Assembly (NCBI RefSeq): GCF_963921235.1
Contig: NC_086097.1
Location: 160,892,001-160,956,000, forward strand
Length of the DNA: 64,000 nucleotides
Direction of reading: 5' to 3'
Source: Mobula hypostoma
Taxonomy: Eukaryota
Positions within the stretch are counted from its first letter, which is position 1. Each line of letters starts with the position of its first letter. The position numbers were made by a program, and so were the translations under genes. A model generated the notes under the pieces. That model saw nothing but the letters and a program-made list of their open reading frames with translations. It ran no database searches and was not told the origin of the DNA. Of this stretch, positions 8,823 through 61,535 are shown in pieces.

Positions 8823-8990
8823 TCATTTCCCTCCTTTCTTCTTGCACTTTTTGTTGGGTTTCAGTTTGGGTAGAGACCTGTGTTGAACATATTTCGGGGA
8901 CACATATCTGATAGATTTTGCTTTCTTGCCTCGTTTATTGTGCCATTGACGGCAGATGCTATGGGTTGTATAGGCTTTTGACTTAGTCAT
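8823..8990 (-). CDS. Unrecognised 55-aa Lys-rich basic protein, putative spermatid/sperm nuclear basic protein (MTKSKAYTTHSICRQWHNKRGKKAKSIRYVSPKYVQHRSLPKLKPNKKCKKKGGK)
   Basis: Translated by hand. Start context ACAACCATG; 15 K, 4 R, no D/E; MTKS start as in S1; same strand as the other SNBP genes. Upstream tgccttttaagatatt (9091-9106) matches the Z2 promoter at 15 of 16 nt; downstream AATAAA. Confidence 0.7.
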   Translation of the reverse strand: MTKSKAYTTHSICRQWHNKRGKKAKSIRYVSPKYVQHRSLPKLKPNKKCKKKGGK

Positions 8991-11027
8991 GGTTGTGTTT
9001 GTCTTTGACGCAGCTCACCCTGATTTCAGCTGTGTATTACATAGGCTGTGATGCACACAATGATCATCATCATCATTTCTGGTAATTTATTGCCTTTTAA
9101 GATATTAGGATATATTCAGATTATGATGTATTTCCTATGGTGCAAGATCACTGTTTTACAAAGTTATAATTTGTTACATACTTTCCTTTGAGTATTGTGC
9201 ATTACTAAGAACATCAAAAAGTGAATATCAAAAAAATAGAGTAAGAGAAAGATAGAACATGGAAAATTACTGTTGGGCCCAGTGAGTCCACCATGACCAT
9301 CAATTACCCATTTATTTACGCAAGTCCCATTTAAAAAAAACACCCCACAGTTTCATTAATCCCCTTTGGATTTAACCGCTCACTACGTACAAGTAGCAAT
9401 TTAGAGTGTCCATTTAAAATATCATCCCTCACCATCAGGACGAAACTGAGGGAAAGCCACTGAGTCACAGTAAGAACATGCAAGCTCTATGCGGCTCGTG
9501 CCCGAGGTCCGGATTGAACTAGGCCTCTGATATTGAGAAGCAGTGGCTTTTCAAGCCGCACCATTGTGCTGCCCAACTATGTGGCTTGGGGGTAAGGATA
9601 ACTAGACTGTAACAGAATGGGACAGTGCAAAAACAGAAATTCATTGCTTAATAAGGATCAAGTAAGAAAAAGTGAAGTGATAAACATGGTCACTAGCACA
9701 AAAATATTTAAAAGTGCAAATCCAGAAGTGCTTGATCCGAATGCTCAAAGCATTTGTAATATGTTAGATGAATGAGCAGAGCAAATAGATGTAAATGAAT
9801 ACAATATCACTGATATTACGGAGAGCAAGAAACAGTCTGCTGGAGGATTGAGCAGCATCTGATATTGTCCGTTACTATTACGGAGATATGGCTGCAATAG
9901 GATAAAGACTGGGAGCTTAACATCAACCAATATCAACCTTTTAGCAATGATAGGCACAAGAAGAAAAGGAGGTAGAATGGAATATGAATTAGTTCAGTTT
10001 GAAAGTAGGGTTTTAAATTTAAACAAATGAAAATATACAAACGGGTAAAAGGATGCAGAATGAGTTGATAATGATGCATTCGGGACGGGGGGGAACATCG
10101 ACTCAGACCATGAGAGGCCTGCGTCAGGCATTTTCATGCCTTACAAGGCGCAGATTGGAAGTCTGTGTGGGGCACTACTAGAGCAATGTGTGATTAAGTG
10201 CCTTGCCACAGCTGAGGCTCGAACTAGCGACCTTGAGGTAACTAGACAAATGCCTTAACCACTTGGCCACATGCCCAACGCATTGGTGAACTTCATTGAA
10301 ACTCATGACTGCTAACAATTAAGGAACAAATAAAGGAACAGCGGTAGTTATACTGATGCAAAAACACAAAAGGAAAAGCAACATAGGTATGATTTACAAA
10401 AGAAGTTCAGGGTAGCATCAGAATCAAAGAAGCTTATAAAATTGCCAGGAACAGCAAGCTTGAGGATTGGGAGCCATTTAGAATCAGCAAAAATGTTGGT
10501 GATACTAAATTTGATTCTGATTATTGCATATAAAATACATATACAGATTTCAAATTAATTAATTGCTACAACTGCAGCTTGTATTGATCTAAAACGTAAT
10601 GAAAAATATTATTCTCAGCATACTAGTATGTAAATGGTGTTAAGTAAGGAGAGATAGCTAGCTAATAACATAGTCAAATAATAACATGTTCAAACAAGAG
10701 GAGTTAACAGGGAATCTGAATTTATCAATATTTAACAGGAAGAAATGATGATTCTTCCAAGATGAGTATAATTAATTCATTGAATATTATACCTATTCAT
10801 TGCTAATATAAAAACCTGTTTCCACACTTTTCCTTTGAACTTAAATGAGGCCTTGAGCAGGTGAATTCCTTTAGACAGAGAATTAACTGCTTTCCCACAG
10901 GACGTAGACTTACATGGTGAGTGGTAGGGCACTGAGGAGAGTGAGGGATCTGGGAATACGATGCATAGTTACTTGAAAGTGCCATCAGAGGTAGATAGGG
11001 TGCTAAAAGAAAAGCAGGACAAAGGCA

Positions 11028-11880
11028 AGAGAAAATCTGCAGATGCTGGAAATCTGAGCAACACACACAAAATGCTGGAGGAACCTAGCAGGCCAGGCAG
11101 CATCTATGGAAAAACGTACAGTCGACGTTTTGGGCAGAAACCCTTCGGCAGGACTGGAGGAAAAAAAGCTGAGGAGTAAATATAAAAGGTGGAGGGAGGG
11201 AAGAAAGAACCAGTAGGTGATAGGTGAAACCTGGTGAAGTGTCACCCATGTTGGGGTCACTTACTGTGTTTGGTGCTCCTGGTGTGAGCTCCTGGACAGC
11301 AGTGACACCTGTCATAGATTGGGAGACCGCTTCGCCGAGCACCTACGCTTCGTTCGCCGGAACAAGCAGGATCTCCCATGGGCCACCCATTTTAATTCCA
11401 CTTTCCATTTCCATTCTAATGTGTCCATCCATTGCCTCCTCCACTGTCGTGATGAGGCCACACTCAGATTGGAGGAACAACAACCTTATATTCCATTTGG
11501 GTAGCCTCCAACCTGGTGGCATGAACTGTGATTTCTCAAACTTCTGGTAATGCCTCCCAAACCTCTTTCTCCATTCCCCATCCCCTTTTCCCTCTCTCAC
11601 CTTATCTGCTTGCCTGCCCATCGCCTTCTCCCACCTTTTCTTTCTTCCATGGTCTTCTGTCTCTTTCACCAATCAACTTCCCAGCTCTTTACTTCATCCC
11701 TCCCTCTTCAGGTTTCACCTATCACCTGGCTTTCTCTCTCCCCTCCCCCCACCTTTTAAATCTACTCCTCAGCTTTTTTTCTCCAGTCCAGCCGAAGGGT
11801 TTTGGCTCAAAATATCGACTGTACTTTTTTCCATAGATGCTACCTGCTCTGCTGAATTCCTCCAGCATTTTTTGTGTTTT
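11028..11880 (+). mobile_element. Penelope-like element remnant with inverted terminal arms
   Basis: GIY-YIG remnant (GDRFAEHLRFVRRNKQDLP) at 11319-11504; 11062-11233 is an inverted copy of 11709-11876. Confidence 0.8.
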
Positions 11881-11884
11881 ATTG

Positions 11885-12880
11885 AATACAGGAGTTGGGA
11901 TATTATGTTGAAGTTGTAGAAGACCATAAGACATATGAGCAGAATTAGGCCAATTAATCCATGGAGTCTACTCTGCCAATTCATCATGCCTGACTTATTA
12001 TCCCTTTTAAACCCATTCTCCTGCCTTCACTCTGTAGCACTTGACGCCCTGTCTAATCAAAAACCTGTCTTCTTTAAATATACCCATTAACTTGGCCTCC
12101 ACAGCCATCCTTGGCAATGAATACCACAGATTCACCACCCTCTGGCTAAAGAAATTCCTTATCTCTGTTCTGAGCGGATATCCCACGATGTTGAGGCTGT
12201 GCCCCCCGTTCCTAGACTCTCCCACTATAGGAAACATCCTCTCCACATACACTCTACCTAGGCCTTTCAGTATTTGATAGCTTTCAATGAGATTCCCCTC
12301 TCATTCTTCTGAATTCCAGCAAGTACAGGCCCAGAGCCATCAAACGCTCACCAATAAGATGTTGGTGAGGCCTAATTTGAAGTATTGTGTGCAGTTTTGG
12401 TCCTATCTGCAGGAAAGATGTCTATAAGATAGAAAGAGTGCAGAGAAATTTTAGGATGATGTCAGGAACTGAGGACCTGAGTTATGTAGAAAGGCTGAAT
12501 ATGTTAGAACTTTTATTCCCTAGACCATAGGAGAATGAGGGAGATTTGATAAAGGTATACAAAATTATGAGGGTAAATGCAAGCTGGTTTCTTCCACTGA
12601 GATTGCGTGAGACCAGAGCTAGATTCTTGAACATGGGTTAAGGATAAAAGGTAAAATGTTTAAAGGGAACATAAGGGGGAATTTTTTTACTCAGTGGGTC
12701 GGTTAGGGTGTGGAACAAGCTTCCAGAGGAAGTGGTGGATGAAGGTTTGTTTTCAACATTTAAGAGAAATTTGGATAGGTACATGGATAAGATGGGTATG
12801 GAGGGCTATGGGCAGGTACATGTCAATGGGACTAGATAGATTTATATTTCAGATGGGCTAAAGGTTCTGTTCCTGTACTA
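11885..12880. mobile_element. Nested CR1 LINE 3' fragments (minus-strand copy about 11925-12350 inside a plus-strand copy)
   Basis: CR1 ORF2 C-terminal motifs (RMFPIVGESR..GHSL, NFFSQRVVNLW; decayed VRP.L.YCVQFW). Confidence 0.75.
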
Positions 12881-14198
12881 TGACTATATAAACCAGCTAT
12901 GTATTTTAAATCACTTCAAAATCTATATTAGTGTCATATGATTCAGGTCATGTCTTACCAATTATTATTAACAATTATATTAGCTTGCTTGATTTTTTAA
13001 ATGAGTAAAGTGCTAAATAATGGTTAAAATATGTCAACCTCTTGGGCAATTCATCTGCAAATTTCACAGAAGTTATCAAAGCATTCCATCTCCAGTTTTA
13101 TTTTTTCCATTCCCTTTGATGAAGATTAATGCAAAATTGGAAGTTCTTGTTCTTAATTATTAAAATAAATCCATGGGAAGATTACTGCAATGAGCAACCA
13201 TTCCGAGTTTTCACAGATGGTAAAACTGAGAAAGTAAGGAGGCATGGGATCCAAGGGACATTGTTTTGTGGATCCAGAACTGGCTTGCCCACAGAAGGCA
13301 AAGAGTGGTTATAGATGGGTCATATTCTGCATGGAGGTTGGTGACCAGTTGTGTGCCTCAGGTATCTATTCTGGGACCCCTATTCTTCGTGATCTTTATA
13401 AGTGGAGGGATGGGTTAGTAATTTTGCTGATGACACAAAGGTTGGGGGTGTTGTGGATAGTGTGGAGGGCCGTCAGAGGTTACAATGGGACAGTGACCAA
13501 TTGGGTTTCCTCCAGGAGGATGAGAGGTGACCTGATAGAGGTGTATAAGATAATGAGAGGCATTCATCATGTGGATAGTCAGAGTCTTTTTCCCAGGGCT
13601 GAAATGGCTAGCCGAGAGGGCATAGGTTTAAGGTGCTTTGAAGTAGGTACAGAGGAGACCTCTGTTTTTTATGCAGAGAGTGGTGAGTGTGTGGAATGGG
13701 CTGCTGGCAGCAGTGGTGGAGGCGGAATCGATAGGGTCTTTTAAGAGACTCCTGGATAGGTACATGGAGCTTAGAAAAATAGAGGGCTATGGGTAAGCCT
13801 AGGTAGTTCTAAGGTAAGGACATGTTCGGCACAGCTTTGTGGGCTGAAGGGCCTGTATTGTGCTGTAGGTTTTCTATGTTTCTATGTAAAAAGGCCATTG
13901 ATATTGCTCACTTCTACTCATAAGTCTGCTTCGTCATTCTAGTTAAATTCTTTCAACATTTCAGTAGCCAACTTACATTTAATGATTTACATGCAAAAAG
14001 TATTTACAAATAACATTTTTCTAATTTATCATGCAAAGATATTTTCAAGAACAACAACTATTTAGGTAGAAATCTCTTTAAACAGATACTTCTTGACTAG
14101 CTAAGTTCATCTATATTCAGATCTGCAGTTTTATTTGTTTAGCTTTGAAGTAGAATTTGTTAACGTGCGGAATCATCTCATTTCTTTCATGGGAGTTA

Positions 14199-14500
14199 GG
14201 GCGCCACAGTAGTGTAGCAGTTAGCGTGATGCTGTTATAGCTCTGGATGTTCTGGAGTTTGGAGTTCAATTTCAAAGCTGTCTGTCTGTAAGGAGTTGGG
14301 ATATTCGCCCTATGACCACGTGGGTTTCCTCCGGGTGCTCCATTTTCATCCCACAGTCCAAAGAACATACCAGTTTGTAGGTTAATTGGTCATTGTGAGT
14401 TGTCTTGTGATTTGGGCTAGAATATGTCCACTGCTGGGCATTGCAGCTCATTGGGATGAAAGGACCTGGTTCTGCGACCTATCTCTAAATAACTAGATAA
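14199..14500 (+). mobile_element. tRNA-derived SINE
   Basis: A-box-like agtagtgtagcagttagc, B-box-like gagttcaatttc, body gtaaggagtt...gggtttcctccgggtgctcc; further copies at about 54025-54305 and 58533-58790. Confidence 0.75.
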
Positions 14501-14703
14501 CACAATTCACAGCAGCAGCCATATTTGAGTGTATACAATCCTCTTTTCCAAGTTCATATGCACCTAAATATCACAATAAGCAATAAATAGCCCATACTTC
14601 TGTCACAGGTAATTTGCATACAAAATACATTTTCCCCATATTTGAGTATAATTTAAGAATGAAGGTACAAATTGGACAAGTTCTGATACTTGCTTTTTAA
14701 AAT

Positions 14704-14709
14704 TTTATT
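14704..14709 (-). terminator. Poly(A) signal of the S2-like gene
   Basis: AATAAA about 40 nt after the stop codon. Confidence 0.7.
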
Positions 14710-14747
14710 TGTATTCAATTGATAATATCTCTGACGCTTGCTGCCGA

Positions 14748-14984
14748 TCACACATTCTTCTTCAAAGATACTTTTTGATTGAGTGTTTCATTAAGGCTCT
14801 TGTTTTTAACTTTTAAAGTATTATCGAGTTCGTTATCTAACTTCTGAATCTTTGGCGGCCTTCGTTTGGGCTGTACATAACGAGGCCTCCGTTGGATTCT
14901 TGTTCTTCTGCCGCTGACTTTTCTTGCTCGTCGTACTTTTGCTAGCCGTTTGCGGGCACGGTTCTGTCTCCTTGACTTGACCAT
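14748..14984 (-). CDS. Spermatid-specific basic protein S2 homologue (78 aa)
   Basis: MVKSRRQNRARKRLAKVRR...KLDNELDNTLKVKNKSLNETLNQKVSLKKNV aligns with the recalled dogfish S2 (VKSRY...KLDNEVDNTLKAKNKSLNEALKNRLSLRKHV). TATATAA at 15058-15064; AATAAA downstream. Confidence 0.9.
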   Translation of the reverse strand: MVKSRRQNRARKRLAKVRRARKVSGRRTRIQRRPRYVQPKRRPPKIQKLDNELDNTLKVKNKSLNETLNQKVSLKKNV

Positions 14985-15057
14985 AGTTTTCTCTTCACTT
15001 CTGCTTTATCAGCAGGTTATTTTTTATCTCTTTACTAAATGGTTATCAGTCTATTAC

Positions 15058-15179
15058 TTATATAGCGTACACTGTGTTGCAACACAATGTAACTTGAAAT
15101 TTGTATTTTATTCTGCATTACCTTATTTGGTATTGATGTGGATATCATGATACACCACAGGTGGTATATCCTTATTAGG
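15058..15179 (-). promoter_or_regulatory. S2 promoter: TATA box and two CArG boxes
   Basis: TATATAA 15058-15064 (minus strand); CCTTATTTGG 15121-15130; CCTTATTAGG 15170-15179. Confidence 0.7.
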
Positions 15180-16329
15180 TATTGTTGTGATTGGCCCTGC
15201 TTGGTCTTGCTGGTTTGCAGTAGGGACCATTGAAGTTTATTATCTTTTATTCCTGTTGCTATACTGTTTGGATTTCAGGGATTTTGTCCTACGTTTGTTC
15301 TTGTGGGTTATGTTCTAACAATTGCAAAGGATAAACGGTTATTGTGCAATCTCACTACATTAAAAAAAATTCATTTCACTGAGATATACATTGATCATAA
15401 AATAAATTCTATATTATCTTGTAAGGAAAGCTTGTCATATTGAGAAATTGAGCAAAAAAATAACATTTTTGTATGACAGTAATAATATAGATCTTCCAGA
15501 TTACAGGGGACTGGCAATAAATATCTAATTTATAGAGGTACATGATTGGTCCTTATCCAAATACCGAGATTGAAAATCATATGCCTTAGTTATACATTTA
15601 TTTTTATAGTGCGAGTTTTCAGTTGGCAACTAATAAAATTAGAGGAATAATGATCATTTGCAGCTGACAGACCAACTATACCAAATATTAATCTCATATG
15701 ATGTGTATTTAATGCTTAAATAATGTTGTAAATATTTTGTTTGATCATATAATTAATTACAGATTATAAGTAATAGTGTGTGAATGGCTTACGTCGTCAT
15801 GCCGCCACATAATACGTCTGTGTGCACCTCACTTAAAGTAAAAATGAAGTTAGATGTGTTATTCCCAGCTCCACTGGTTTTATGCTTTGGAGTTACAAAA
15901 CATAACAGATGAGGCCTCACAAGCAATTTTGTTTGCAGAAATGAGGAAAGATTCTTAACTTATGCTTTTAACACAATGAGAATTTCACAAACATGAGAAA
16001 GTCTACAGTTGCAAGAAATCCAAAGCTACACACACACACAATGTTGAAGGAACTCAGCAGGTCAGGCAGCATCTATGGAAATGAATAAACAGTCAAAGTT
16101 TCACACTGAGATATTCCTTCAGAACTGGAAAGGAAGGGGGAAGATGCCAGAATAAAAAGGTGGGAGGAGGGGAAGGAGGATAGTGAGAAGATGATAGGTG
16201 AAGCCAGTTGGATAGGAAAGGTAAAGGGCTGGAGAGGAAGGACCATAGGAGAAAGGGAAGGAGGAGGTGACTCGGGAGATAAATCAGAATTCGAATCAAA
16301 ATCACGTCTAATATCACCAGCATATGTCT

Positions 16330-17230
16330 TGAAATTATTTGTTATACAGCTGCAGCACATTGCAATGCATAATAATAGAAACTAACTTACGGTAAGTTTT
16401 ACATATAAAATAGTTAAATTAAGTAAGTGGTGCACAAAAAGGTAGTGAGGTAGTGTCATTCAGAAATCCAATGGCAAAGGAGAAGCAATTCCTAAATCAG
16501 TGAGTGTGTGCCTTCAGGCCCCTGTACCTCCTTCCTGCTGGTAGCAATGAGCAGAGGGCATGTCATGGTCCTTAATGACGGATGCCGTCTTTTTGAGGCA
16601 TCGCCCCTTGAAAATGCCCTGGATGCTGGGGAGGCTAGTGCTCATGATAGAGCTGACTGACTTCACAACCTTCTCCAGCTTATTTTGATCCTGTATTCTA
16701 CGCGCCCCCCCCACCCCAACCCCCATACCAGACTACGATGCTCTCCACGGTAGAAATTTGCGCATGTCTTTGGTGACATACCAGGTCTCCTGAAACTCCT
16801 AATGAAATGTAGCTGCTGTCATACCCTCTTTGTAACTGATATGTGGGGCCCAGGTTAGATCCTCAGGAATGTTGACACCCAGGAATTTGAAATTGCTTAC
16901 TCTTTCAATTTCTGATCCCTTTATGAGGACTGGTGTCTGTTCCCTTATTTTACCCTTTCTGAAGTCCACAATCAGTTCTTTGGTCTTACTGACCTTGAGT
17001 GCAAGGTTGTTACTGTGACACCACTCAACCAGCTGATATTTCTTGCTCCTGGTGTAGAGAGAGTAGAGCACTGGGCTAAGCACATATTCTTAAGGTGCAC
17101 CAGTGTTGACTGTCAAAGAGGTAGAGATGCTATTTCCAATTGACACAGGCTGTGGTCCTCCAGGAGGAAGTCGAGGATCCATTTGCAGAGGGAGGAATAA
17201 TTATGTTAAGTTCTGAGCTGTAGTTAATAA
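16330..17230 (-). mobile_element. Rex1/Babar-like LINE 3' fragment
   Basis: WCHSNNLALKVSKTKELIVDFRK...ERVSNFKFLGV motifs in ORF 16799-17083. Confidence 0.75.
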
Positions 17231-18079
17231 ACAGCAGCCTGACAGAAGTATTAGTATTAATGATAGGCAGGTGAGAGGCCAGAGTGGGGAATAGAAGGAG
17301 GGGGAGCGAAAAGTGTTTTTGCCCAAAGGAGAAATCGATGTTCATGCCATCAGGTTGGAGGCTACCCAGACAGGATATAAGGTGTTGTTCCTCCACCCTG
17401 AGGGTGACCTCACTGTGGCACAAGGAGGCCATGGACTGACATGTCCGAATGGAACGGGAATTGGAATTAAAGTGTTTGGCCTACGGGAAGTTCCGCTTTT
17501 GGCAGATGGAGTGGAGGTGCACAAGAAAGCGGTCCCCTAATTTACAACAGGTCTCACCAATGTAGAGGAGGCTGCATCGGGAGCACCGGACACCATAGGT
17601 GACCCCAGCAGATTTATAGATGAAGTGTTGCCTCACCTAGAAGGCCTTTTCAGGGCCCTGAACAGAGGTAAGAAAGGAGATGAATGGACAGACGTAACAC
17701 CTAGGCAGGTTTTAGGATTTCCTGTTTCTGCTCAGCATCCATTCTTCTAGTTGTTGATACACAGCAACATTCTTAGGAACGTTATCTTCTGGCTGCATGA
17801 ATTTATCTCGCTGCATAAGAGTTTTCCAGGTGTGACCTCACCCAGAGCCTGTATCAGTGCAACATGTATATATTTTTATTTACAGACATGGCCATTCTGG
17901 CCCAAAAGCCCACCCTGCCTAATTATGGCTATGTGACCAATTAACCCCTTTGTCTCTGGAATGTGGAGGGAAACCAGGTCACCTAGGTTCAGTATAGAAC
18001 CAAAAACTCTCTTTGCATAGTTTGTATGGGCAATATTTGCACATCCCCACAGCACTTTATCTCCCACTACCACGGTGAT

Positions 18080-19860
18080 GGCTTCAGAACAGCACAGACC
18101 CTTCAGCGCATGACCTATTAACTTATGTTGACCTTTTAACCTATTCTAACCTTCTTAATCCCACCCCAGCTCTCCACTTTTCTTTTATCCAGGTACAGTA
18201 CCTGTCTAAGTCTCCTAAATGTCCCTAATTTATTTATCTATGCCACCACCTCTGGCTGCGCTTTCCAAGCACCTACCATTGTGTAGAAATCTCTACCTCC
18301 GACTTCCCCCCATACTTTCCTCCATATGATATCTCCTTGTATTAGATACTTTTGACCAGGGAAATTGTCTCTGACTGTCCATTCTAGCTCTGCCTCTTAG
18401 CATCTTATACACTCTATCACGTCACGTCTCGTCCTCTATAGCTTGCTCTATTTATCTATACCCATGAAGCATGCTCTCTAATCTAGGCAGCATCCTGGTA
18501 AATCTCCTCTGCACCCTCTCTAAAGCTTCCACATCATTCCTATAATGGGGTGATCAGAACTGAACAGAATACTCCAAGTGTGGCCTAACCAGAGTTTTAT
18601 AGAACTGCAACGTTATGTCATGGCTCTTAAACTTATCCATCCTATCAACTTGTGCAGGAACTTTGAGGGATCTATGGACATGGACCCCAAGATCCTTCCG
18701 TGCCTCCACATTGCAAAGAATTCTAACATTAACCTTGTATATAGCCTTCAAATTCTAAAATGAATCACTTTACACCTCCACTTTGAACCTCAGCTGCCAC
18801 TTCTCAGGCTACCTCTGCATTCTATCAATGTTCTGTTATAGCCTACAACAAACTTCTATGCTATCCACAACACCACCAACCTTCATGTCATCTACAAACT
18901 TACTAACCCACCTTCCACTTTCTCATCTAAGTCATTTATAAACAAAAACAAAGAACAGGGGTCTCTGAAAAGATCCCTGACGAACGCCACTACTCACTGG
19001 CCTCCAGGCAAAACATGTTCCATCTATTATCACTTTCTGCCTTCTGTGGGCAAGTCCATGCAGTCAACTTTCTTTAGATCCCATATTTATTGGCTTTCTG
19101 AATGAGCCTGCTATGGGGAATTTACTAAGGTCCACATTCACTACACACCACTTCCTCATGGAACTCATTCATACTCGTCAGGCATGGCCTGCACCTTACA
19201 AAGCTATGCGAACTATCAATAATCAGACTAAGCTTCTCCAAATGCTCATAAATCCTCTCTAAGAATCTATGAATCCTCCAATAGTTTGCCTACCACTGAT
19301 GTAATTGACTACTGACCATTTACTACTCTGTACTTCACAAGATTATCTCCATTATCTTTCCTGAGCAAAAGAATAACATTTGCTGCCCTCCAATCGAATG
19401 ATTCTACTCCTGTGGTAGTGAGGATGCAAAGATCATTGCTAAATATACTGCAATTTCTTCTCTTGTTTCCAGTCTAGTCTCGGAGACTTACAGTATCTAT
19501 CTTAATGTTTTTTCAGAAATTCAAACACATTCTTTTGCTCAATGTTGACACGTTCCAGCATGTTAGCCTGTCTACGCTGTCCTAACTTTCATTAAGTTCC
19601 CTCTCACTGGGGAAAACTTAAGCAAGTTAAGAACCTCCCCAGCTCCTCCAACTCCAGGCATGTTTTTTCTTTCATCCCTGATCAATTCTACCCTCACATT
19701 AGTCATCTTCTGGTTCTTCTCGCACATATAGAAAGCTTTGTGGTTTTCCTTAATCCTACTTGCCAAGACCTTCTCATATTCCCTTCTGGTTCTCCAAAAT
19801 CCATTCTTCAGCTTTATGGCTCTTTGCTGCTTTTTAAAGTTTCCCTAATCTTCAAGTTTC
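18080..19860 (-). mobile_element. Decayed CR1 LINE
   Basis: DLGVHVHRSLKV and KTLVRPHLEYSVQF motifs; many stops. Confidence 0.75.
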
Positions 19861-20954
19861 CCACTACTCTGTGTTGCTTTGTAGACATGAATTTTAATAA
19901 TAATATCTTACTTATAGAACACCTTTCATACAGATGATGTAGTTCAAAGTGTTTTACAATGGAATAAAGTACGAACATAGAATAAAAGATAAAAGTCTTG
20001 GACTATATTTTTTGTGTGACTGACTGTTGGTATTGTGTTTTGCACCTTGGCCACAGAGTAAAACTGGAATTCATGTACGGTTGAATGACAAGTAAATTTG
20101 AACTTGAAAAAAGATGTTAATTAAAAGCCAGGTTAAATAAATAGTTTTAAAATGGCATTTAAAAGTGTCAGTGTATAGTTTTAGGTGTGAAATTCCACAG
20201 TTCAAAAGAGCTGACTTGCCAATTATCTTTAGAGGGAGCTTGTTTGAATTTAAGAGACTGATGGAAGAAGAGCTGTGAGATTGAGCAGGATTATAAAACA
20301 AAAGCAATGCAAGAATGTACACAGGCCTCAGACTATTGAGAACTTTAAATCCAAGTAAGAGAACTTTAAAATCAATTCTAAAAGATGCAGGAAACCAATG
20401 GAGTAACTACGATGGGAGTGATATGCCCTCTCATCCTGGTTTTAGTTGAAATTCTAGCAGCAGTATTCTGAATGAGTTTGTCAATAGATTGCTTTGGAAG
20501 GCCAGTAAAAAGCGCATTGCAAGTTATCTCGTCTATTCCATATGAAGGTGTGAATTAATTTTTCAGCATCATTATGTGACAGAAATAGACACAACTTTGC
20601 AATATTTTAGTTTGATTTTAGCTTGACGTCTTCTTTTATTTCTTTGGCTTTCCCCACCCTTACAGCTCCTGCTTTAGACTGGAATATACTTTTGTTGGGA
20701 ACCATGAAAAATCACTTTAAAAGTCTTCCACTATTCTTTAACTGTCCCAAAATATTGCCTGTGTCCTCAGTGTACACTAGCAGCTCCTCCCTCATCCCAA
20801 TGTAGTCTATCATAAACATGAGAAAGTCTGCAAATGCTGGAAATCCCAACGTAACACACAGAAAATGCTGGAGGAACTCAGCAGGTCAGGCATCATCTAT
20901 GGAAATGAATAAACAGTCAACGTTTCAGGCTGAGACCCTTCTTCCTAACTGAAA

Positions 20955-25636: not shown

Positions 25637-25642
25637 TTTATT
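25637..25642 (-). terminator. Poly(A) signal of the S1-like gene
   Basis: AATAAA about 35 nt after the stop codon. Confidence 0.7.
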
Positions 25643-25675
25643 CAATATCAAGTGATACTCTTTTCATCATGGCAT

Positions 25676-25942: not shown

Positions 25943-26023
25943 GTCCTCTTGATTAGCAAATTGTCTTGTACACTATCTCACTGATTAGAGATTTTCAATT
26001 GAATGTTAGCTCCCGTAGGCAGC

Positions 26024-48420: not shown

Positions 48421-49209
48421 AGATTTAAACACTCTAATTCTCCAGAATACAGATAGCTGGCATGGCCTCTTTAAGGGCTTAGGACATTCCCATTAATCGA
48501 TAATCATGTGTTAGGCGCCAAGAATTGGGTACTTAAGGAAAACATGAGCATAAGTTCTGTGCTCAATAGTAAGCCTACTAGTGATATCGTCCAGCATTTC
48601 TTTTGTGCTCTGATCCAGTTTGATAACATGTCTCAAATCTAGCTTCGGATACCCCAGCATTTGGTTTCAAACCATCTTCATCAAGGACTCTCGTCAATGG
48701 ACTGTAATGTATGGATCTATTTCTTTTAGACCAATGACTTTCCCCCTTAGCACTACATACTAATATGTTGTCTGCGCATGCGCTGATGTCTATGCATGCA
48801 CATTGTTCTCTCCCTCTCTCACTCTCTCCTGGCAACTTTTGTGCATTTAAAAGCACCAAAGCTCCAACAATTCCTGTCTCACCATATTAATGTCATACAG
48901 TGATTTACATTCCTATGATTCTGAATCGTCCCCCTGTTTTGTAGGCATTTACAAAATTTCATCCTATGCTGCATCTCTATTCATAGATTGATCTGAAACC
49001 CAGATTCTTGTTTATTTTTTCAGCACAATCTCTTCTGAAAGCCACCTATTTCCAAATTTAAATGTGATTGTGGCCCTTTCCACATCAACTGGTGCTGCTG
49101 CAGAAATTCAACCAGATGCCAAGTTGGTGGCTTTCAGTGGTGACTCTTTGCATTCAACTCCGAAGAAAATCATCAGATATTCCCATTTAGGACTACAGCT
49201 GAATGCAGA

Positions 49210-52200: not shown

Positions 52201-53135
52201 CACAGAAATGCAAATTGGAAATAACATCTCCTCCTCACTGACAGTCAACGTGGGCATAGCTCAAGGATGCGTGCTTTCCCCATCTGCTCTACTCTCTACA
52301 CCCGCAACTGGGCACAGATCAAATGCAGATGACACAAATATTGTTGGCAGAATTCCAAATGGTGATCAGGAGGTATCTAGGAGAAGGATTGATCAACTGG
52401 TTGAGTAGTGTCGAAACAACAACCTTGCACTCAACATTGGTAAGATTGTGGACCTGATTGATTGTAGATTTCCGGAAGTAGAAGTCACGGGAACACACTG
52501 CAGTCCTCATCGAGGTTTCAGCAGTGTAAAGGGTGAGCAGTTTCAAGTTCCTGCGTGTCAGTATCTCTGAAGATCTGTCCTGGGCCCAAAATATTGATTC
52601 AATTACAAAGAAGGCACGACAGTGCCGATACTTCATTAGGGGTTTGAAGAGACTTGGTATGTCACAAAAGACTCTCACATGGACTCTCAGATGTACCATG
52701 GAGAGCATCTAACTGGTTGCATCATTATCTGTTCCAAAGGGGCCACTGCACAGGATCGGAAAAAGCTGCAAACAGCTGTAAACTCAGCCATTTCCAACAT
52801 GGGCAGCAGACTCCCCAGTATTGAGGACATCTTCAAAAGGTGATGCCTCAAAAAGGTGGCATCCATCATTAAGGACCCCCATCACCCAGGACATGCCCTC
52901 TTCTCATTGCTCCCATCAAGAAGGAGACACAGGAACCTGCAGACATACACTCAATGTCTTAGAAACAGTTTCTTCTCCACCGCCATCAGATTTCTGAATG
53001 GAAAATCAATCCATGTACACTACCTCACTATTTATTTTTTGCTCTTTTTGCACTACTTGCTTAATTTATTTTATATATTTTTATTGTATTTTATAGATTT
53101 TTATTATGTATTGTAATTTATCTGATTCTGATTCT
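49210..53135. mobile_element. Cluster of Rex1/Babar-like LINE fragments in both orientations
   Basis: VERANSFKFL, KKAQQRLFHFRR, IDYSSEFNT and HPGHALFSLLPS motifs. Confidence 0.8.
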
Positions 53136-53173
53136 GAAACCTTAAAGTAAATTTATTATCAAAGTCTATATAT

Positions 53174-53906
53174 CAGGGGTCCCCAACCTTCTTTGCAGCG
53201 CGGACTGGTTTAATAATGACAATATTCTTGCAGACCGGCCGACCGGTGGGGGGAGGTATATTCAAGTAGGGTTAAACTCACCTCAACATGTCTTTTACAG
53301 TAAGGGTTGCCAATTTTCTCATCCCCAAATAAGCGACAAAACTAGCAGTCCTGGGACACTTTACCCCAGGAAAGACTACCATGACCATGCAAGCCTTGCG
53401 CGGGCACGTGTGCGCATGCGTGCTGATTTTTTTCCACAAATCGGTTTTGCCTTTATCTTCCCGACTACACTGCACATACATTATTTCTACTTTATATAGG
53501 CTGTGTATTTATCATATCATTCCTGCTTTCACTATATGTTAGTGCTATTTTCAGTTTTATGTGTTAGTTGGTATGATTTGGTAGGTTACTTTTTGGGTCT
53601 GGGAACGCTCAAAAATTTTTCCCATATAAATTAATGGTAATTGCTTCTTCACTTCACACCATCTTGGCACAAAAGGTTTCATAGGAACGCTCTACCCTAG
53701 CGGGGGAAATACGGGACAAGGGCAGTCCCATATGGGACAAACCAATTTAACCCAATATATGGGATGTCCCAACAAATACAGGACTGTTGGCAACCCTATG
53801 TTCAAGTTCAATAGTGCGTGACAGGGAATGAGGAAAGGTGCAGCTGACTCATATCATTCCCCCGTGGCCTGGTACCGGTCCGCAGCCCGGTGGTTGGGAA
53901 CCGCTG
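53174..53906. mobile_element. hAT-type non-autonomous element with an internal second TIR pair
   Basis: TIRs caggggtccccaacc / ggttgggaaccgctg; 8-bp TSD ctatatat at 53166-53173 and 53907-53914; internal agggttgccaa (53303) and ttggcaaccct (53787). Confidence 0.88.
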
Positions 53907-54967
53907 CTATATATGATACCATATACTACCCAGGATTCATTTCCTTATGGGCATTCACAGTAGATACAAGGAAATACAATAGAATCAAGAAAAACAAAGA
54001 CAGATAAACAACCAATGTGCAACGGGGTGGTGTGGTAGCTTAGTGGTTAGCACTATGCTTTTCAGTACAGATTACCTGGGTTTAATTCCCACCACAGCCT
54101 GTAAGGAGTTTGTATGTTCTCCCTGTGACTGCATGGGTTTCTGCTGGGTCCTCTAGTTTCCTCCCACAGTCCAAAGGCGTACCGATTGGTAAGTTCTTTG
54201 GCCATTGTAAACTGTCCTGTGATTAGGCGAGGATTAAATCGGGGAATTGCTGGATGGCGTGGTTCGTAGGGCCATGAGGGCATATTCCATGCTATTTCTC
54301 AATTTAAAACAACAGAAAACAAACTGTGCAAACACATAAATAAAGAACAGATAATATTAAGACATGAGTTGTGGAGTCCTTGATAGTGAGTCCATAAGTG
54401 TGGAATCAGTTCAGTGTTGAGGTGAGTGTGGTTATCCACATTGCTTCAGGAGCCTGCTGGTTGAGGGGCAATAACTGTTCCTGAACCTGGTAGCATTGGA
54501 TGTAAGGCTCCTGTACCTTTTTCTTAATGGCAGCAGAGAGAAAAGACCGTGGATGGTGGGGGCCCTTGCTGGTGGATGCTACTTTCTTGTGGCAGTGCTA
54601 CTTGTAGTTGTATTAAATGGTGGGAGGGCTTTTCCTGTGATGGAATGGACTGTATCCACTACTTTTTATAGGTTTTTCCATTCATGGGCATTGGCCTTCC
54701 CATAGCAAGCTGTGACAGAACCTGTCATGATAGTCCACACTGTGCCTCAGCAGAAGTTTTTTAAAGTTTTAGATGTAAATTTGAATTTGTGCTAACTTCT
54801 AAAAAAAATAGAGGCACTGCCGTGCCTTCTTTGTAGTGACTCTTACGTGCTAGTCCTAGGACAAATACCCTGAAATGATAACACTAAGGAATTTTAAAGT
54901 TACTGATCCTCTCCAACTCAGTTCAGTACATTAGAGTCAAGGTACACAATAGTTATTTGATTTGAAT

Positions 54968-54973
54968 TTTATT
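54968..54973 (-). terminator. Poly(A) signal of the Z1-like gene
   Basis: AATAAA about 130 nt after the stop codon. Confidence 0.65.
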
Positions 54974-55102
54974 CAAAATGACTTCAGTGTAAGAAGCAGC
55001 AGGAGTATTGAATTCAGGGAGTACTTCATCACAAACAGTGAATGTTTCTTAAGAAAACTCATTAGGAATGGTTCTTGTTGGATGAAGACTGACAAGCAAT
55101 TC

Positions 55103-55267
55103 TTAACATCTTCTTCTCCCTCTTCTTCTTCTTTTTGGCAATCTTCTAATGTGGCATCTTCTTCGATATATTTTAGACCTGTCCCTCTTAGTTAGACATA
55201 ATCGTCGTAAGTGCCGCCTCCGTAAATAACAAGTTTCTGTCTTCTTAACTGGCTTAGAGCGCTTCAT
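55103..55267 (-). CDS. Cysteine-containing protamine Z1 (scylliorhinine Z1) homologue, 54 aa ([54 protein letters not shown])
   Basis: Translated by hand. [11 protein letters not shown]...KRD-x-SK-x-YRRR-x-H-x-RRLPK...C matches the recalled dogfish Z1. Confidence 0.92.
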
Positions 55268-55322
55268 TACTGTGTCTCATCCACCTTACTTTTGACTCTT
55301 AAATCCCAGCGTCTTGTCTTTG

Positions 55323-55477
55323 TTTAAATATATTTAATAACTTTCACAGCTTAAATATATGAGGTATCCATTATGATGTAATAGATTTTTGTGACCATTC
55401 GTGCCTTGTAAGGCCTTGACAACATGATGTATTCAGCTTCAATTGCAATGTAGAGGTGATATCGCTACCTTATAAGG
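55323..55477 (-). promoter_or_regulatory. Z1 promoter: TATA-like, CRE-like and CArG elements
   Basis: TATTTAAA 55323-55330 (minus); TGATGTAAT 55374-55382; CCTTGTAAGG 55404-55413 (one mismatch); CCTTATAAGG 55468-55477. Confidence 0.65.
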
Positions 55478-55569
55478 AATCGTGTACAGCTGGGATCTGC
55501 TATCTCCTTTTCGTCCTTCATTTTGTTAAAACTTTGTGTAGAGCAAGTTCATCAGTAGCCCCTGAACAG

Positions 55570-55755
55570 GTTGAGAGTAAATGAACGGTTTATTGTAAAC
55601 ATCTTTCATTTGTAAGTGAACAGAGAGCCAACACATAATTTTATTGTAAATACCTTTATTGAATAAGGACTCAGAGTCAACGAATGTTTTTTTCTTGTAT
55701 GTAAATAACTTTGTTTTGTAATACTTCTGAATAAAGTATTTTTGGAGAAAAAAAA
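55570..55755 (+). mobile_element. Short 5'-truncated poly(A) retroposon insertion (L1/Tx1-like 3' end)
   Basis: Ends in aataaa and an A tail; flanked by a 19-bp TSD atcagta(g/t)cccctgaacag at 55551-55569 and 55756-55774. Confidence 0.75.
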
Positions 55756-58700
55756 ATCAGTATCCCCTGAACAGCAAGTGATATCTATATTTCTTAGGTC
55801 AGGTAGAGCACAAGTAACTGCAGAGTAAACCTCTCACTACTTAATACTGACCTCACACTGCTCCCCTATTTCTATATAATGCACAAGCCACCATTATTGC
55901 CTTATAAGTACATCATTAATTAAATGCCAAATTAGAGGGGGTTGTTCAGCACAAAGACATGAGTGAAGCTGTGTATTGGCTTTTTCAGTTAATCACTCTC
56001 CATGAACATAATAAGTACAGAACAATTAAACCAATAGCAGCAAGCTTTACCAGCTGCTCTTGGGCTGATTGTTCCAGATTTAATATTAAATGGCAGCTCA
56101 ATGGGAAGATTTATGGAGACTGGATTCCAGCATTCCCAATTTTGAGAACTGGATTTAAATCCAGCATGTCTGATGAAAAGATATAAAATATGCATTGCAG
56201 TCCATGTGTATTCCTCATGAAAAGGGTAAAGTTGCTATTACTTAAGCAGATAGTCTAATTGCTTTAGAATGCAGTACAGAAGGGCATTCAGTTTGTTATG
56301 TCTTGTGACTTCTATGAAAGAACTGTCTTAAGTACTTCCACTTGCTTGTTCTTTGCAATTGTCTCCCCTTTACCACTAACCTTATTTCCTTTTGAAAGTC
56401 ATTATCAGCTCATACTTCCACAACAGCTAAAGAAACACATCCAATTTAGGTGGCATCTTTATGCAGTGGTTACCTCAAGGGATTTTATGAAAGTTTAGTC
56501 AAACTTTAGAGAGAGCTGCATAAGGAGCTATTTTTCCCAAAAATATACTTTATTCAGAAATATGACAAAATAAAGTTATTTACATAAAAAACCATTTGTT
56601 GACCCTAAGTCCTTATATGAGCATGTGACAACAGACTTTCATGTAAAGCATTCTGGGTGTAGTGGGTAAAAGAACTTTCACCTCCTCTCTGGCTCTTAAC
56701 CAATTACTTCAAATCTGTATCTTCCAACTGTGTGTGAGTTTATGTGGCTTTTTTTGCAATATTACTTTCAAGTCCTTGAGCCTTGACTTCCTATATTAAT
56801 CTCAAAAAGTTGTCTCACCTCCTTGTCTCAAAAGAACCTGGTGGGATTTATATACAGAGAATAGAAGCCAGAATGTGAGGTGCACATAACAACAAGAGAT
56901 TAAAAAAGGAAGTAAGAAAGACAATGTTAAAATGGTAATGTTGGACTTCAATATGCAGATAGACTGAAAAAAATCAAGTTGTCACAGGAGTTGATTTTTC
57001 CGGTCGATCTACACATTGTTATGTGGAATGTATGTACAGTATCCCTACTAGATGGCTCTCACTAGGGAAATGGCAATTCTGGATTTCATGCTGTGCAATA
57101 AACCAAATTTGAGTAAAGAGCTTAAGGTAAAGGAACCCTTAGGAAAGGGTGATTATAATATGATAGAATTTACCCTGCAAGTTTGCTGGAGGATTGGAGG
57201 ATAGCAAATGTTGTTTCATTGTTTAAGAAAGGCTCCAGGCTGCGAAATTATAGGCCAGTGAGCCTGACATCAATAGTGGATACATTATTGGAAGGCGTTT
57301 TAAGGGATTGTATATAAAAGTATTTGGATAAACACAGACTGAGTAGGGTTAAATTGCCCCTTATGTGTGGGTGTGAGGAGAGAGTGTGGCAAGAGTAAAA
57401 GTAGATTAGAGCAAATGGATGTTTGGCAGGGCCTTGGTAGGCTGAAGGGCCTCTTTTCAAGCTCTAAGACCTTATGATTCTGATAGCCTGAAAAATACCC
57501 TCATAAGCCACACTGGAGCTGTTGCCTCTTCTGTAATGTCTGGCAGTAGTGCATTGCAAACTAATTACTGGGCCCAAAAGTTTCCCAATTCAAATCAACT
57601 AGGAAAGACTCCATTGAGAAGCACCAAGCCAGTTTGTTTGAACAATGTAGAAAACCATGCTAATCCAACTGCCATAGATTGCCCCTTGTTTTGTGAATAT
57701 GCCATGGACTGCTGAATGCATCAGCAGTAGCAAGAAGTGCAATAAAAAGAAAGGCTTGCATTCTATAGCATGTTTTCCATCATCCCAAAGAACTTCAGAG
57801 GCAATGAAATATTTTTGAAATGTAATATTTTTATTATATGGAAAGCAGATGCTAATTTGCATATAGTAATGCTTAACAAACTCAGTTGGATAACAAAGGA
57901 TTTTGATTAACGTTGACCTGTAATATTAACTCTTTATCTCTCTCTATAGATGCTGCTTAACCTGCTCAGCATTTCCAATAAGTTCTATTTTTATTTCAGA
58001 TTATTGGCTTCTTCAGTACTTTACCTTTGTAATATTGGTAGTCATGTCAAATTTATCACCACATGTACAGGTACTGTGAAGTACAGTTCCAATGAAAAGC
58101 TTGCACCACTGACTCATAGATATAGACAACATACAAAACATAAATTATACATGAATAGTTCATAAATTATATAAGGCAGTGAAGAGGAAAAAGACTACGC
58201 AAAGCAAAACGTGTGCAAGTCAAAACACATTTAGAGAGAAGTCCATAACAGGTGGTCCTTAATTTTTGGTTGCTGTAGCAAGGGTAGGTTGTTTCAAGAA
58301 CCTCATAGTTGAAGGAAAAGAGCTCTTCCTGAACCTTCTGATGTGAGATTTCAGGCTTCTGTACCTTCTGTCTGACAATAGTGGAACAAAGTCATGACCC
58401 AGGCAGCAGGGATCCTAGATGATAAGGCCCACTGAAGATGCAGCATCTCCTATTGATGTTGTCGCTGGTGGGGTGGGTTGTGCCCATGATTGACTGGGCT
58501 ATGTCCACTGTTCTCTATAGCCTCTTACATTAGGGTGGCATGGTAGTGTAGTGGTTAGCACAATGCTTTACAGTACAGGCGGCCCAGGTTCAATTCCCGT
58601 AAGGAGTTTGTATGTTCTCCCCATGACCACGTGAGTTTCCTCCCTCAGTCCAAAAATCTACTAGTAGGTAGGTTGATTGGTCATTGTAATTTGTCCAGTG

Positions 58701-59060
58701 GTTAGGCAAGGATTAAATCTGAGGATTTCAGGGTGGCGTAGCTCAAAGGGCCAGAAGTGTCAATGCCACATGGTATCTTAATAAATAAATAACATCCTGT
58801 ATATTGGTATAATTTGTATATATGGTATTGTCTGAGGAATAGGTAATGATCTGGTTAGCAAAGATTACTCATCTTCTCTTAGAAGGATGCCAGAGAATTT
58901 TTTTAATAGACATTTGAGATTTGACATTTGATGCCAGATATCTATGCTGAACTCTGCAGCCTTCTGCTTAGAGGCACAGACAGCAACAGGGAATTGGTGG
59001 GAAAATTGCGCCCTCTTTAACATGTTCTGTATAATGCCTATTTCATTGTCTTTATTTCAG

Positions 59061-59174
59061 CATAAGGATCAGTTGCCTCTACATTTTGCTGCCAGTCGAC
59101 CCAGTGGTGCTCTCAACATAGTACAGATGCTACTGAGGTCCTCAAACAAAGATGCTCGATTGATGCAAGATAAG
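59061..59174 (+). CDS. trpn1: TRPN1/NompC mechanosensitive channel, ankyrin-repeat exon (HKDQLPLHFAASRPSGALNIVQMLLRSSNKDARLMQDK)
   Basis: tttatttcag acceptor, gtagga donor, 114 nt, phase 0/0; aligns with the recalled Drosophila NompC QTAVHLVSSRQTGTATNILRALLAAAGKDIRLKAD. Confidence 0.85.
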
Positions 59175-61430
59175 GTAGGAGATAGGGACTCTTTACCTTT
59201 AAAAACCGTAGCTAAGTATGTTTGGGTTCTATTCATGTATAGTGAATGTGTAATAAATTCTGGCCCTGTCCTTGGTTTTATAAAATATTACTGATATACT
59301 GTTAACTTGCTATACTTCTTTCTCAAAAAAGAGCTTACACTTTTAATCAATGAATGAAAACTTGAATCTTTTATTTCAAATAGTAATGGAATGACAATTT
59401 TTCATTCTTATCTATTGTCCAGAAAAAGCAATGATTTACCTCATTAATGTTCATCAGTATAACATTGCAACGAAGAACAGCTAATAAACTAGCTTCTGCT
59501 GATCAATAATTGACTACCCTACTGCTGAAGTATCTTCTCTCTGGGAGAGGATTACTTACATAAAAAATAGATTACAAAGAAATCTAGGATTTTCAAGACA
59601 AAGAAAAGCTCTGTGTAGAGAACTTACTTGATCATCATGACTTTCAAATCTCTTGCATGTGATAATCTTTTCACTTATCAATACCTACAGAGTTGTTATT
59701 CCTCTCTGTGCCTTGTGGTGCATTGGGCAACAACCTTGCCATTTCTTTTGCATTTTGTTTGTTTTTTTATGAGGCTGAGTCAGCATCGATGGAAGGCGTG
59801 TGAGGAGCCGGCTGAATTCGAACCCAGGACCACTCGCATTAAAGGCTGGGTGCTGACGCCACTACACCACCAGCTGGCTATCAATACCTACAATACCTGT
59901 TAATTGTGATGCATTTCATTTATCTTTCACATTTGCCAAATTACTGAATATACTCAAGTCATCTGTACTTAAATGAAACAGAGATCATGGAACTACTCAG
60001 CTAGTCAGACAGAATCTGCAAAAGAAAAACAGCTAAGATTTCAAGCACATGGTCTTGCCTGAGAACTAACCTACTGGTCCTGCCAGTTTTGCTTATTTTG
60101 TTTTTCTTTCTTTAAGATTTTGCATAAATGTGTCATTCTCTAGTATTAATTGCTGTTGTAATAATTCACAAGAAAGCAGTGTTTTCAACTCAAATGACAT
60201 TGCTTGAGCTGAGTTTCTGGAGGTGCCTATAATCGTCAGTTGACACACTTGCCCATATTTAACAATAGCAACCAAAAACAATTTTCTCCATGATTATCCA
60301 GTCCAAAACCAGACGGTGGTAAATCTGATTCAGATATTACAGCAATTACAGAGTTAGAATTCTCCTGAAAAGCCACCTTCAATATTCAGGTGCTTTTTAG
60401 GACTGCAATATTTTACGAAAATTCATATTTAGGATAGAATGTCAAAACTGCCATTAAACTATTTTTAATAATCATCATAGATTTAACTGAATTGTTGGTA
60501 CTAAACAATGCCTAATTATTATTTAGTAGCAACAATTTATTTTTAATTTATAATGATTATTAGGAATATTTTAATGGTGGTGTTTTTAATAGATCAAATT
60601 AATAGTCTTAAAAATTTGATTTTCATTCTTTTATTTTTTCAGGATAAGATATTCAACCAAGGGTCTATCTACTCTCTTGAATATGTGTAATAAATCCTTT
60701 AGTGTGGACGAGGAGTGAGAGAATCATCTTAAATGCAAAAAAAAGCTGCTGGAGAATTCAGCAGGCCAGGCAGCATCTGCAGAGGAAAACGGACAGTCGA
60801 TCTTTTGGGTTAAGAGTTTCATTTAGACCCTTCATCGAGACAATTCATCAATCCAGAGCAAGGGCTTCAACCCAAAATATCAACAATCTAGTTGATCCAC
60901 AGATGCTACCTGACTCCAACATCTGTAGTTTCTTGAGTTAGTCTCAGTATTCTGGGTCAAATTTAATAAACAAGGATAAATAAAGACTTTCCAGTAATAA
61001 TCACATACTTTGTCCAAGTGTCTCAATCCCATCAAGCAGATGGAAATGGTGTAACTTACAAGCTCCCCCCTAAGTTGTATGGTATACTGGCTTTGAAAAA
61101 TATTATTATCCCTTAACCATCATCCAATTCAGGTCACGGCACTTATACAATAGTGAATCTAGATCCTGGAACTCCCTGCACAATAGTGCTATGGAAGTAC
61201 CTTCGCTAAAAGAGTCACAGATATTTAAGAGAGCAGCTTCTCGGGGCATCTGGGGAAGGACAGCAATATAGTTACAGGATCTTGCTGTGTGTTAGCTAAC
61301 TGCTGTACTTCTTGCACTACCATGGTAACCACATCACAAAAGTATTATGAAGGGATGAAAGGCAATACCTAAATGTCGGTCTTTTCTTCTTCTGTGACCA
61401 CACTTTGTTCCACTTTGTTTTTTTTCATAG

Positions 61431-61535
61431 GATGGCTGCATTCCCTTGTTTCTAAGTGCTGAAGTTGGTAATGTCGTAGTGTGCAAGGAACTACTCAGTG
61501 TTAATGCTGATCTACAACTCAGGACACAACGGAAG
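61431..61535 (+). CDS. trpn1: TRPN1/NompC next ankyrin-repeat exon (DGCIPLFLSAEVGNVVVCKELLSVNADLQLRTQRK)
   Basis: Strong polypyrimidine acceptor, gtacag donor, 105 nt, phase 0/0; continues the NompC alignment (GKIPLLLAVESGNQSMCRELLAAQTAEQLK). Confidence 0.85.

Follow-up and report, generated by a model that had tools for sequence, protein, structure and literature searches.

The third coding intron of the mechanosensory channel gene TRPN1 in the devil ray Mobula hypostoma contains six short open reading frames (ORFs) for basic proteins, all on the strand opposite to the host gene. We studied them in a 64,000-bp window (the whole stretch of DNA analysed, G000:C1:160892001-160956000) and in 200 kb taken on each side, 464 kb in all. 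With a probability that we put at roughly 0.8, the ORFs represent single-exon genes, each for a small basic protein, lined up antisense within the 61.8-kb intron of an intact TRPN1, and likely constitute an independent, testis-specific unit that would be switched on, likely by SRF, through shared CArG boxes. The intact ORFs likely encode proteins that repackage sperm DNA, namely spermatid intermediate proteins and protamines. The finding is this co-oriented row of sperm genes with one promoter motif and not nesting per se.

The TRPN1 gene and its third coding intron

We mapped full-length TRPN1 proteins onto the contig tile by tile and recovered a complete series of exons in which every intron is GT-AG once phase is allowed for. 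The 1662-residue protein P0038, named by its source as Mobula hypostoma TRPN1, maps in order across 221 kb, residue for residue and ending in a stop, with a single skipped residue that falls on a tile boundary. Coding exons 1 to 3 lie to the left of the window (Table 1), and exon 4 is followed by 25 more exons and a stop near G000:C1:161070011. The intron between exons 3 and 4 (G000:C1:160889261-160951060; phase 0, GT-AG) measures 61,800 bp and is the longest of all 28 TRPN1 introns, the runner-up having 35,655 bp. There is no N in the window or in the 40 flanking tiles, so the 464 kb are gap-free. A first-pass annotation of this DNA had placed the upstream exon beyond the left edge of the window and predicted an intron of more than 59 kb, and both predictions hold, as exon 3 ends 2,740 bp away. 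It had also seen no earlier exon in positions 1-59060, where 11 full-length TRPN1 proteins indeed gave no match better than E 0.62. Two arrangements had been named that would leave the cluster outside the gene, with the first TRPN1 exons at 55.5-59 kb or with a 5'-truncated trpn1 to which the cluster is merely adjacent. Both fail because exons 1 to 3 map to the left of the window, as parts of a full-length gene, and positions 1-59060 contain no TRPN1 match.

The two exons inside the window are internal, phase-0, plus-strand ankyrin exons, exactly where the annotation had put them, with AG before and GT after each. Its estimate of 3.8 kb between the first of them and the start codon of the nearest basic ORF (Z1-like, ATG at 55267) agrees with the 3,794 bp that we measured. 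Inspection by eye upstream of exon 4 showed three ankyrin motifs, two of them clear and the third degenerate; the annotation's numbering of the exons as third and fourth repeats is right if clear repeats are counted, and shifts to fourth and fifth once the degenerate motif is included. The exon 4 peptide matched eight sequences in the protein collection, all TRPN1-type (best E 9.3e-22); five bear the TRPN1 name and the other three are unnamed or misnamed proteins of shark, skate and annelid. Together, the exon 4 and exon 5 peptides are identical to P0038 at 73/73 residues, to other myliobatiform rays at 71-72/73 and to Narcine and sharks at 65-66/73. They align to residues 195-230 and 233-262 of the Drosophila protein (5VKQ), and P0038 carries 27 Pfam Ank stretches (PF00023) and an Ion_trans domain (PF00520) at its cut-off. 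Exon 4 has a single match genome-wide and TRPN1 is single copy. An extra in-frame exon of 63 nt with AG/GT ends (G000:C1:160857014-160857076; L025:5014-5076) is found in the P0038 model only, where it inserts 21 residues between two ankyrin repeats.

By its sequence, this TRPN1 is an intact channel gene and is not 5'-truncated. TRPN1/NompC channels are marked by a long N-terminal array of about 28 ankyrin repeats ahead of a TRP ion-transport domain. With its ankyrin array, its ion-transport domain and its single copy, the ray gene resembles NompC (5VKQ; PMC4494053), and the protein is ordinary; the oddity lies in the contents of its third intron. According to PMC4494053, bilaterians have one copy of TRP-N, and its most likely point of loss is the root of the amniotes, which bears out the annotation's remark that amniotes have lost the gene. 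A comparison with Pfam of 141 of the 191 repeat-poor flanking ORFs of at least 70 aa, in which short exons would escape, returned three matches, all to retroelement domains. In a scan of metagenomes, a TRPN1 fragment from a skate returned 48 pattern matches, of which none was confirmed. The intronic address alone is unsurprising, because one intron makes up 28% of the TRPN1 span in a genome of 3.5 Gb.

Basic-protein ORFs and their putative promoters

We scanned the 464 kb for short basic ORFs, a procedure that also turned up many repeat-derived ones, and six stood out in the TRPN1 intron, five of them intact and one a truncated copy. All are on the minus strand between exons 3 and 4 (8823-55267), as expected from the annotation's proposal of a cluster antisense within the intron; its observation is confirmed and its interpretation as nesting is supported. 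Spermatid-specific protein S1 of Scyliorhinus canicula (P13275, SSS1_SCYCA) has its orthologue in the 88-aa ORF, which is 81.6% identical to it across 87 aa and has the same basic N-terminal part and C-terminal tail. The P13275 record gives no genomic place, whereas the ray S1 gene is single-exon, lies in the TRPN1 intron and carries CArG boxes. The other S1 relatives that we found were two unnamed Callorhinchus milii proteins in UniRef, with no genomic location, and the 50% library gave one. The 78-aa ORF is a paralogue of S1, with 43% identity and a coding DNA alignment well above chance (z 7.4, 0/300 shuffles).

Two shorter ORFs have the composition of protamines. The 54-aa ORF, which stands head to head with TRPN1 exon 4 and has a single match genome-wide, contains 20 Arg, 7 Lys and 4 Cys; the 43-aa ORF contains 16 Arg, 6 Lys and 3 Cys. 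With 43-54 aa, 50-51% Arg+Lys and 3-4 Cys, they resemble in size and make-up the dogfish protamines Z1 and Z2, which are short, about half basic and contain several Cys. The dogfish set comprises the scylliorhinines Z1, Z2, Z3 and S4 and the intermediate protein S2; we name the 54-, 43- and 78-aa ORFs as putative counterparts of Z1, Z2 and S2. No S4-like ORF was recognized in the intron, and the 55-aa Lys-rich ORF of the ray has no known dogfish counterpart. This 55-aa ORF is the weakest member of the cluster; its AATAAA lies 142 nt past the stop, and a CArG box with one mismatch is found at 9093-9102 (-112). The 38-aa ORF duplicates the start of the Z2-like gene but lacks that gene's CArG boxes, final codons and 3' untranslated region (UTR), and is likely a pseudogene. 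It is not an assembly artefact, because a 200-nt contig of run X2 spans its 3' breakpoint without any difference. Each of the five intact ORFs has its only strong genome match at this locus, and eight queries for sperm nuclear basic proteins (SNBPs) matched only the known ORFs over the 464 kb. Another basic ORF of 51 aa, 290 bp into the intron and left of the window, was set aside because neither a TATA box nor a poly(A) signal accompanies it.

The distance from ATG to AATAAA is 274-310 nt in all five intact genes, and three have a TATA-like box at -54 to -80. Most of them also share the CArG box, CC(A/T)6GG, a motif that we fixed in advance and did not mine from the present sequence. The window holds 10 perfect CArG boxes, eight of which fall within 300 bp before the ATG of four of the five intact genes (one for Z1-like, three for Z2-like, two each for S1 and S2-like). 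At the background density of 33 in 600 kb, 0.08 would be expected (Poisson P 5e-14), and only 31 of 2040 background tiles contain a perfect box. The remaining two boxes (18539 and 56441) have no basic ORF alongside. The letters ATA precede the CArG box on its 5' side in 7/11 perfect promoter boxes, compared with 0/66 background orientations. The CArG box is the binding site of SRF, and boxes shared in this way would let one factor, likely SRF, switch the genes on together. A genome-wide search for the pattern CArG-TATA-ATG gave 197 matches and was too loose to use.

Two further protamine-like ORFs on the same contig, 6.1 Mb (34 aa) and 10.3 Mb (47 aa) from the cluster, served as a held-out test of the motif. 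Both have a perfect CArG box at -135 or -137, against the 31/2040 background tiles, together with a TATA box near -60 and an AATAAA, which brings the SNBP-like genes with a perfect proximal box to six of the seven intact ones examined on contig C1. The 34-aa ORF, which resembles dogfish Z3, is on the strand opposite to collagen Gly-X-Y exons (L071:3567-3478, 3291-3247). The existence of these two ORFs elsewhere on the contig means that the intron cluster is not the whole SNBP set.

Table 1. Features of the TRPN1 locus and related ORFs (window positions unless prefixed by a contig)
Feature	Position	Strand	Remarks
TRPN1 coding exon 1	G000:C1:160849073-160849222		protein mapping; 42.8 kb left of window
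TRPN1 coding exon 2	G000:C1:160853405-160853506		protein mapping; 38.5 kb left of window
TRPN1 coding exon 3	G000:C1:160889162-160889260		protein mapping; 2.7 kb left of window
TRPN1 intron between coding exons 3 and 4, part in window	1..59060	+	begins 2,740 bp left of window
TRPN1 coding exon 4	59061..59174	+	ankyrin repeat, 114 nt, 38 codons; exon 5 in P0038 model
TRPN1 coding exon 5	61431..61535	+	ankyrin repeat, 105 nt, 35 codons
Lys-rich ORF, 55 aa	8823..8990	-	15 K, 4 R, 2 C, no acidic residue; S1-like start
S2-like S-type ORF, 78 aa	14748..14984	-	S1 paralogue; TATATAA -80
CArG boxes (2), S2-like	15121..15179	.	starts 15121, 15170
Spermatid-specific protein S1 orthologue, 88 aa	25676..25942	-	P13275 E 1.6e-31; single genome match
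CArG boxes (2), S1	26116..26223	.	starts 26116, 26214
Z2-like ORF, 43 aa, Arg/Cys-rich, putative protamine	42382..42513	-	TATAAAA -54; AATAAA 142 nt past stop
CArG boxes (3), intact Z2-like	42629..42724	.	starts 42629, 42687, 42715
Truncated Z2-like copy, 38 aa	43818..43934	-	exact 205-nt duplicate of Z2 gene start
Z1-like ORF, 54 aa, Arg/Cys-rich, putative protamine	55103..55267	-	TATA-like box -63; AATAAA 130 nt past stop
CArG box, Z1-like	55468..55477	.	210 bp before ATG
Arg/Gly-rich, Cys-free ORF, 34 aa	G000:C1:154793869 (L071:2869-2973)	+	two CArG boxes, TATA, AATAAA
Lys/Arg/Cys-rich ORF, 47 aa	G000:C1:150629913 (L072:2913-2770)	-	CArG -137, TATA, AATAAA

The intron also holds repeats. 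By eye, a frameshifted, CR1-like remnant of a long interspersed nuclear element (LINE) with endonuclease- and reverse-transcriptase-like frames occupies 32313-35027 on the minus strand, and a second LINE remnant lies at about 37784-40393 on the plus strand. Broken Ty3/gypsy-like pol frames (reverse transcriptase, RNase H and integrase-like, again by eye) are found at 46197-47862 on the plus strand, between the Z2 copies and Z1. A GC-rich tandem repeat at 40820-41118 has a unit of about 67 nt in at least four copies.

Weighing the nested cluster against its alternatives

Several observations weigh against the reading of the locus as a nested, independent cluster of sperm genes, and those on the host gene concern splicing across the long intron. 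The join of exons 3 and 4 was not seen in RNA, with one contig in four runs (X2, X3, X5 and X6), and this sole exon 4 contig stops at 59065 without a 5' loose end. The annotated TRPN1 proteins of other species are automatic models, and exons 1 to 3 are missing from 9/9 listed Narcine isoforms, 1/11 Hypanus isoforms and the Scyliorhinus canicula model, while the Amblyraja gene is split into two models. What the RNA contig (169 nt, run X6, RNA by guess) does provide is the next junction: it covers 59065-59175 and continues for 58 letters, the first 30 of which match the start of exon 5 at 29/30, so that exon 4 is spliced to exon 5. As for exons 3 and 4, their join is present in the annotated TRPN1 of Heterodontus, Chiloscyllium, Hemitrygon, Mobula, Hypanus, Carcharodon and Mustelus. 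In 8/11 Hypanus isoforms the junction carries six extra residues that match an in-frame alternative GT donor 18 nt into the intron of the present sequence (L022:7261-7278), which suggests transcript support in that species.

The missing join and the breaks in several species' models are what one would expect if the nesting were an artefact, with exons 1 to 3 drawn from another unit or brought in by misassembly and the cluster merely adjacent to a 5'-truncated TRPN1. Yet exons 1 to 3 encode the preceding part of this very protein, agree with it in order, strand and phase and have canonical splice sites, the assembly has no gap across the 464 kb, and only one TRPN1 exon 4 is present genome-wide. 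We regard this explanation as highly improbable. The Narcine starts could reflect a real 5' loss or rearrangement at this intron, or model error, and the length of the intron is a plausible cause of the breaks.

The same starts enter into a second alternative, a functional coupling in which promoters or enhancers on the Z1 side also fire toward exon 4, yielding a co-regulated, short testis TRPN1 without the first ankyrin repeats. The geometry would suit it, as the Z1-like gene is divergent from exon 4 at short distance and the extra CArG box at 56441 lies between them. All nine Narcine models (P0005 and P0020-P0027) and the one Hypanus model begin at or after exon 4. Seven of the Narcine starts, however, carry four residues before exon 4 that end in Q, and look like model extension into the intron because the in-frame acceptor CAG here also reads Q. 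Furthermore, the window (1-64000) contains no CpG island, and no 5' end was seen in RNA. Coupling is thus unlikely in our judgment, and the link between the cluster and the channel is likely positional and not functional. Nesting by itself does not show that hearing or touch is connected with sperm.

The points against the nested cluster of sperm genes also include several on the ORFs themselves. None of the five exact ORF sequences is present in a collection of 15 billion proteins, and none of the five passes a Pfam cut-off, Protamine_P1 included. A pooled profile found no relatives of Z1, Z2 or S2 among 139 candidates, and none at E 10; this blank is weak because the profile gave its own Z2 member only 39 bits. 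The short genes resemble one another only weakly in coding sequence, and S1-S2 is the sole clear pair of 10. The 55-aa ORF has no TATA match and only the one-mismatch CArG box, and in the Atlas it hits clusters of ribosomal L29 (0.90). The CArG boxes are sequence matches and hence candidate SRF sites only. Expression of the intact cluster genes was not readable in runs X1, X2, X5 and X6, in which repeats swamped the result, and the blank carries no claim.

One could therefore argue that S1 and the S2-like gene are the only sperm genes here and that the shorter ORFs are chance frames, pseudogenes or genes of other function. Repeats do generate chance basic ORFs in this genome, the short ORFs lack database relatives and their Atlas leads are weak or ribosomal (Protamine_P1 at a weak 0.80 for the Z1-like ORF, and for no other, and L29 for the 55-aa ORF). 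Set against this are the features that the Z1- and Z2-like ORFs have in common, from their Arg+Lys and Cys contents to a TATA-like box, perfect CArG boxes and the same AATAAA spacing, as well as the location of each short ORF's only strong genome match at this locus. In addition, a stretch past the poly(A) signal is common to Z2 and S1 (z 7.9, 0/300 shuffles) and, less strongly, to the 55-aa gene and S1 (z 3.4, 3/300 shuffles). We consider it very unlikely that the whole set of short ORFs is spurious. For the 55-aa ORF taken alone, a chance ORF, a pseudogene or another function is a less probable reading that nonetheless deserves serious weight.

The preferred reading, a nested row of sperm genes under their own promoters, would imply the following history. 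A founder gene may have settled in the TRPN1 intron and grown by tandem duplication, and this mode of growth is supported by the stretch past the poly(A) signal that Z2, S1 and the 55-aa gene share. The exact 205-nt copy of Z2 would be a recent, failed round of the same process. Local alignment of the 3' UTRs of the three short genes with the S1 and S2 tails gave z values of only -1.3 to 1.9 in all six pairs. When alignments were anchored at the poly(A) signal (10 pairs), Z1-S1 reached z 3.1 (1/500 shuffles) and the 55-aa gene with S1 z 2.7 (4/500 shuffles), with no signal for Z2. The anchored alignments are weakly suggestive of protamine genes that may have arisen as shortened S-type genes. 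In spermatids, each small gene would be transcribed from its own promoter on the minus strand. S1 and S2 would replace the histones first and the Cys-containing Z proteins would follow, as in the dogfish, where the intermediate proteins S1 and S2 precede the Cys-containing Z protamines. TRPN1, on the plus strand, would be transcribed probably for the most part in other, sensory cells, and the cluster spliced out with the intron.

A different address from the mammalian protamine locus

In mammals, the PRM1-PRM2-PRM3-TNP2 cluster sits between SOCS1 and RMI2, a head-to-head pair. The ray counterparts of these neighbours are on another contig, C36, with RMI2 at 131.84-131.88 Mb on the minus strand and a SOCS1-like gene at 131.979 Mb on the plus strand (a 223-codon SOCS-box frame with an SH2-like region, assigned by eye). 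The cluster is on C1, in agreement with the annotation's view that the locus differs from the SOCS1-linked one. About 101 kb separate RMI2 from the SOCS1-like gene. A basic-window scan of this interval yielded no protamine-like ORF on reading, most hits being repeat-derived frames that recur elsewhere; a similar scan recovers 5/6 ORFs in the window. In the same 101 kb, the eight SNBP queries gave no tblastn match at E 0.1 and no CArG box stood ahead of a convincing basic ORF, although a very short or intron-split gene could escape. A genome-wide search with Pfam Protamine_P1 gave no match, but neither did its control.

The two clusters are alike in that both group intermediate proteins with protamines in a single row of tiny genes that all face the same way. 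Beyond their address, they differ in gene structure, as the ray genes have no intron in the ORF while mammalian PRM genes have one. They also differ in promoter type. The mammalian spermatid programme is based on cAMP response elements (CREs), whereas the ray promoters have CArG boxes, and for four of the five intact genes the 300 bp ahead of the ATG contain no CRE-like site. The portion of PMC6368001 available to us does not mention RMI2, PRM or TNP2. As to other gene neighbourhoods, none of the 21 NSUN-family matches (PF01189) is on C1. On contig C5, one NSUN-family group and a match to a calcium-channel beta subunit are 0.1 Mb apart, and an NSUN6-CACNB2 pairing is known in human. At G000:C18:53436175-53570609, NSUN-family (PF01189) exon matches form an equal-score inverted pair, which suggests an inverted duplication.

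Nested clusters are already known as a kind. In insects, the TipE cluster is nested in CG18675 and GMC oxidoreductase genes in flotillin-2, and the functional ties between host and nested genes are described as usually unclear, with inverse or no correlation in expression (PMC3240667). As in the ray, several related genes occupy one large intron of an unrelated host; the ray case differs in being vertebrate, in involving germ-line genes and in having all of them on the strand opposite to the host. The TRPN1-intron address was not found in the literature searched, which covered few subscription papers and no supplements and included no paper that places these genes or pairs trpn1 with protamine.

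Sequence alone cannot settle whether vertebrate protamines have a single origin, because SNBPs are short, repetitive and fast-changing. A fixed address in a conserved, single-copy gene makes that origin testable by synteny. We offer as a tentative and rather doubtful generalization that sharks and rays may have intronic SNBP addresses of their own, with a cluster conserved within intron 3 of TRPN1 and lone genes elsewhere on that chromosome, run by SRF through CArG boxes and not by a CRE-based programme as in mammals, and that some of their protamines may be truncated S-type genes. If true, a cluster of intermediate proteins and protamines would have arisen twice in vertebrates, the one in sharks and rays being independent of the SOCS1-linked locus of mammals. 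Knowledge of these proteins comes largely from protein studies in the dogfish, and the locus adds their genes and promoters. Its CArG signature is a handy marker with which to track down further microgenes of this type, and it offers a concrete hypothesis for how spermiogenesis may be switched on in sharks and rays.

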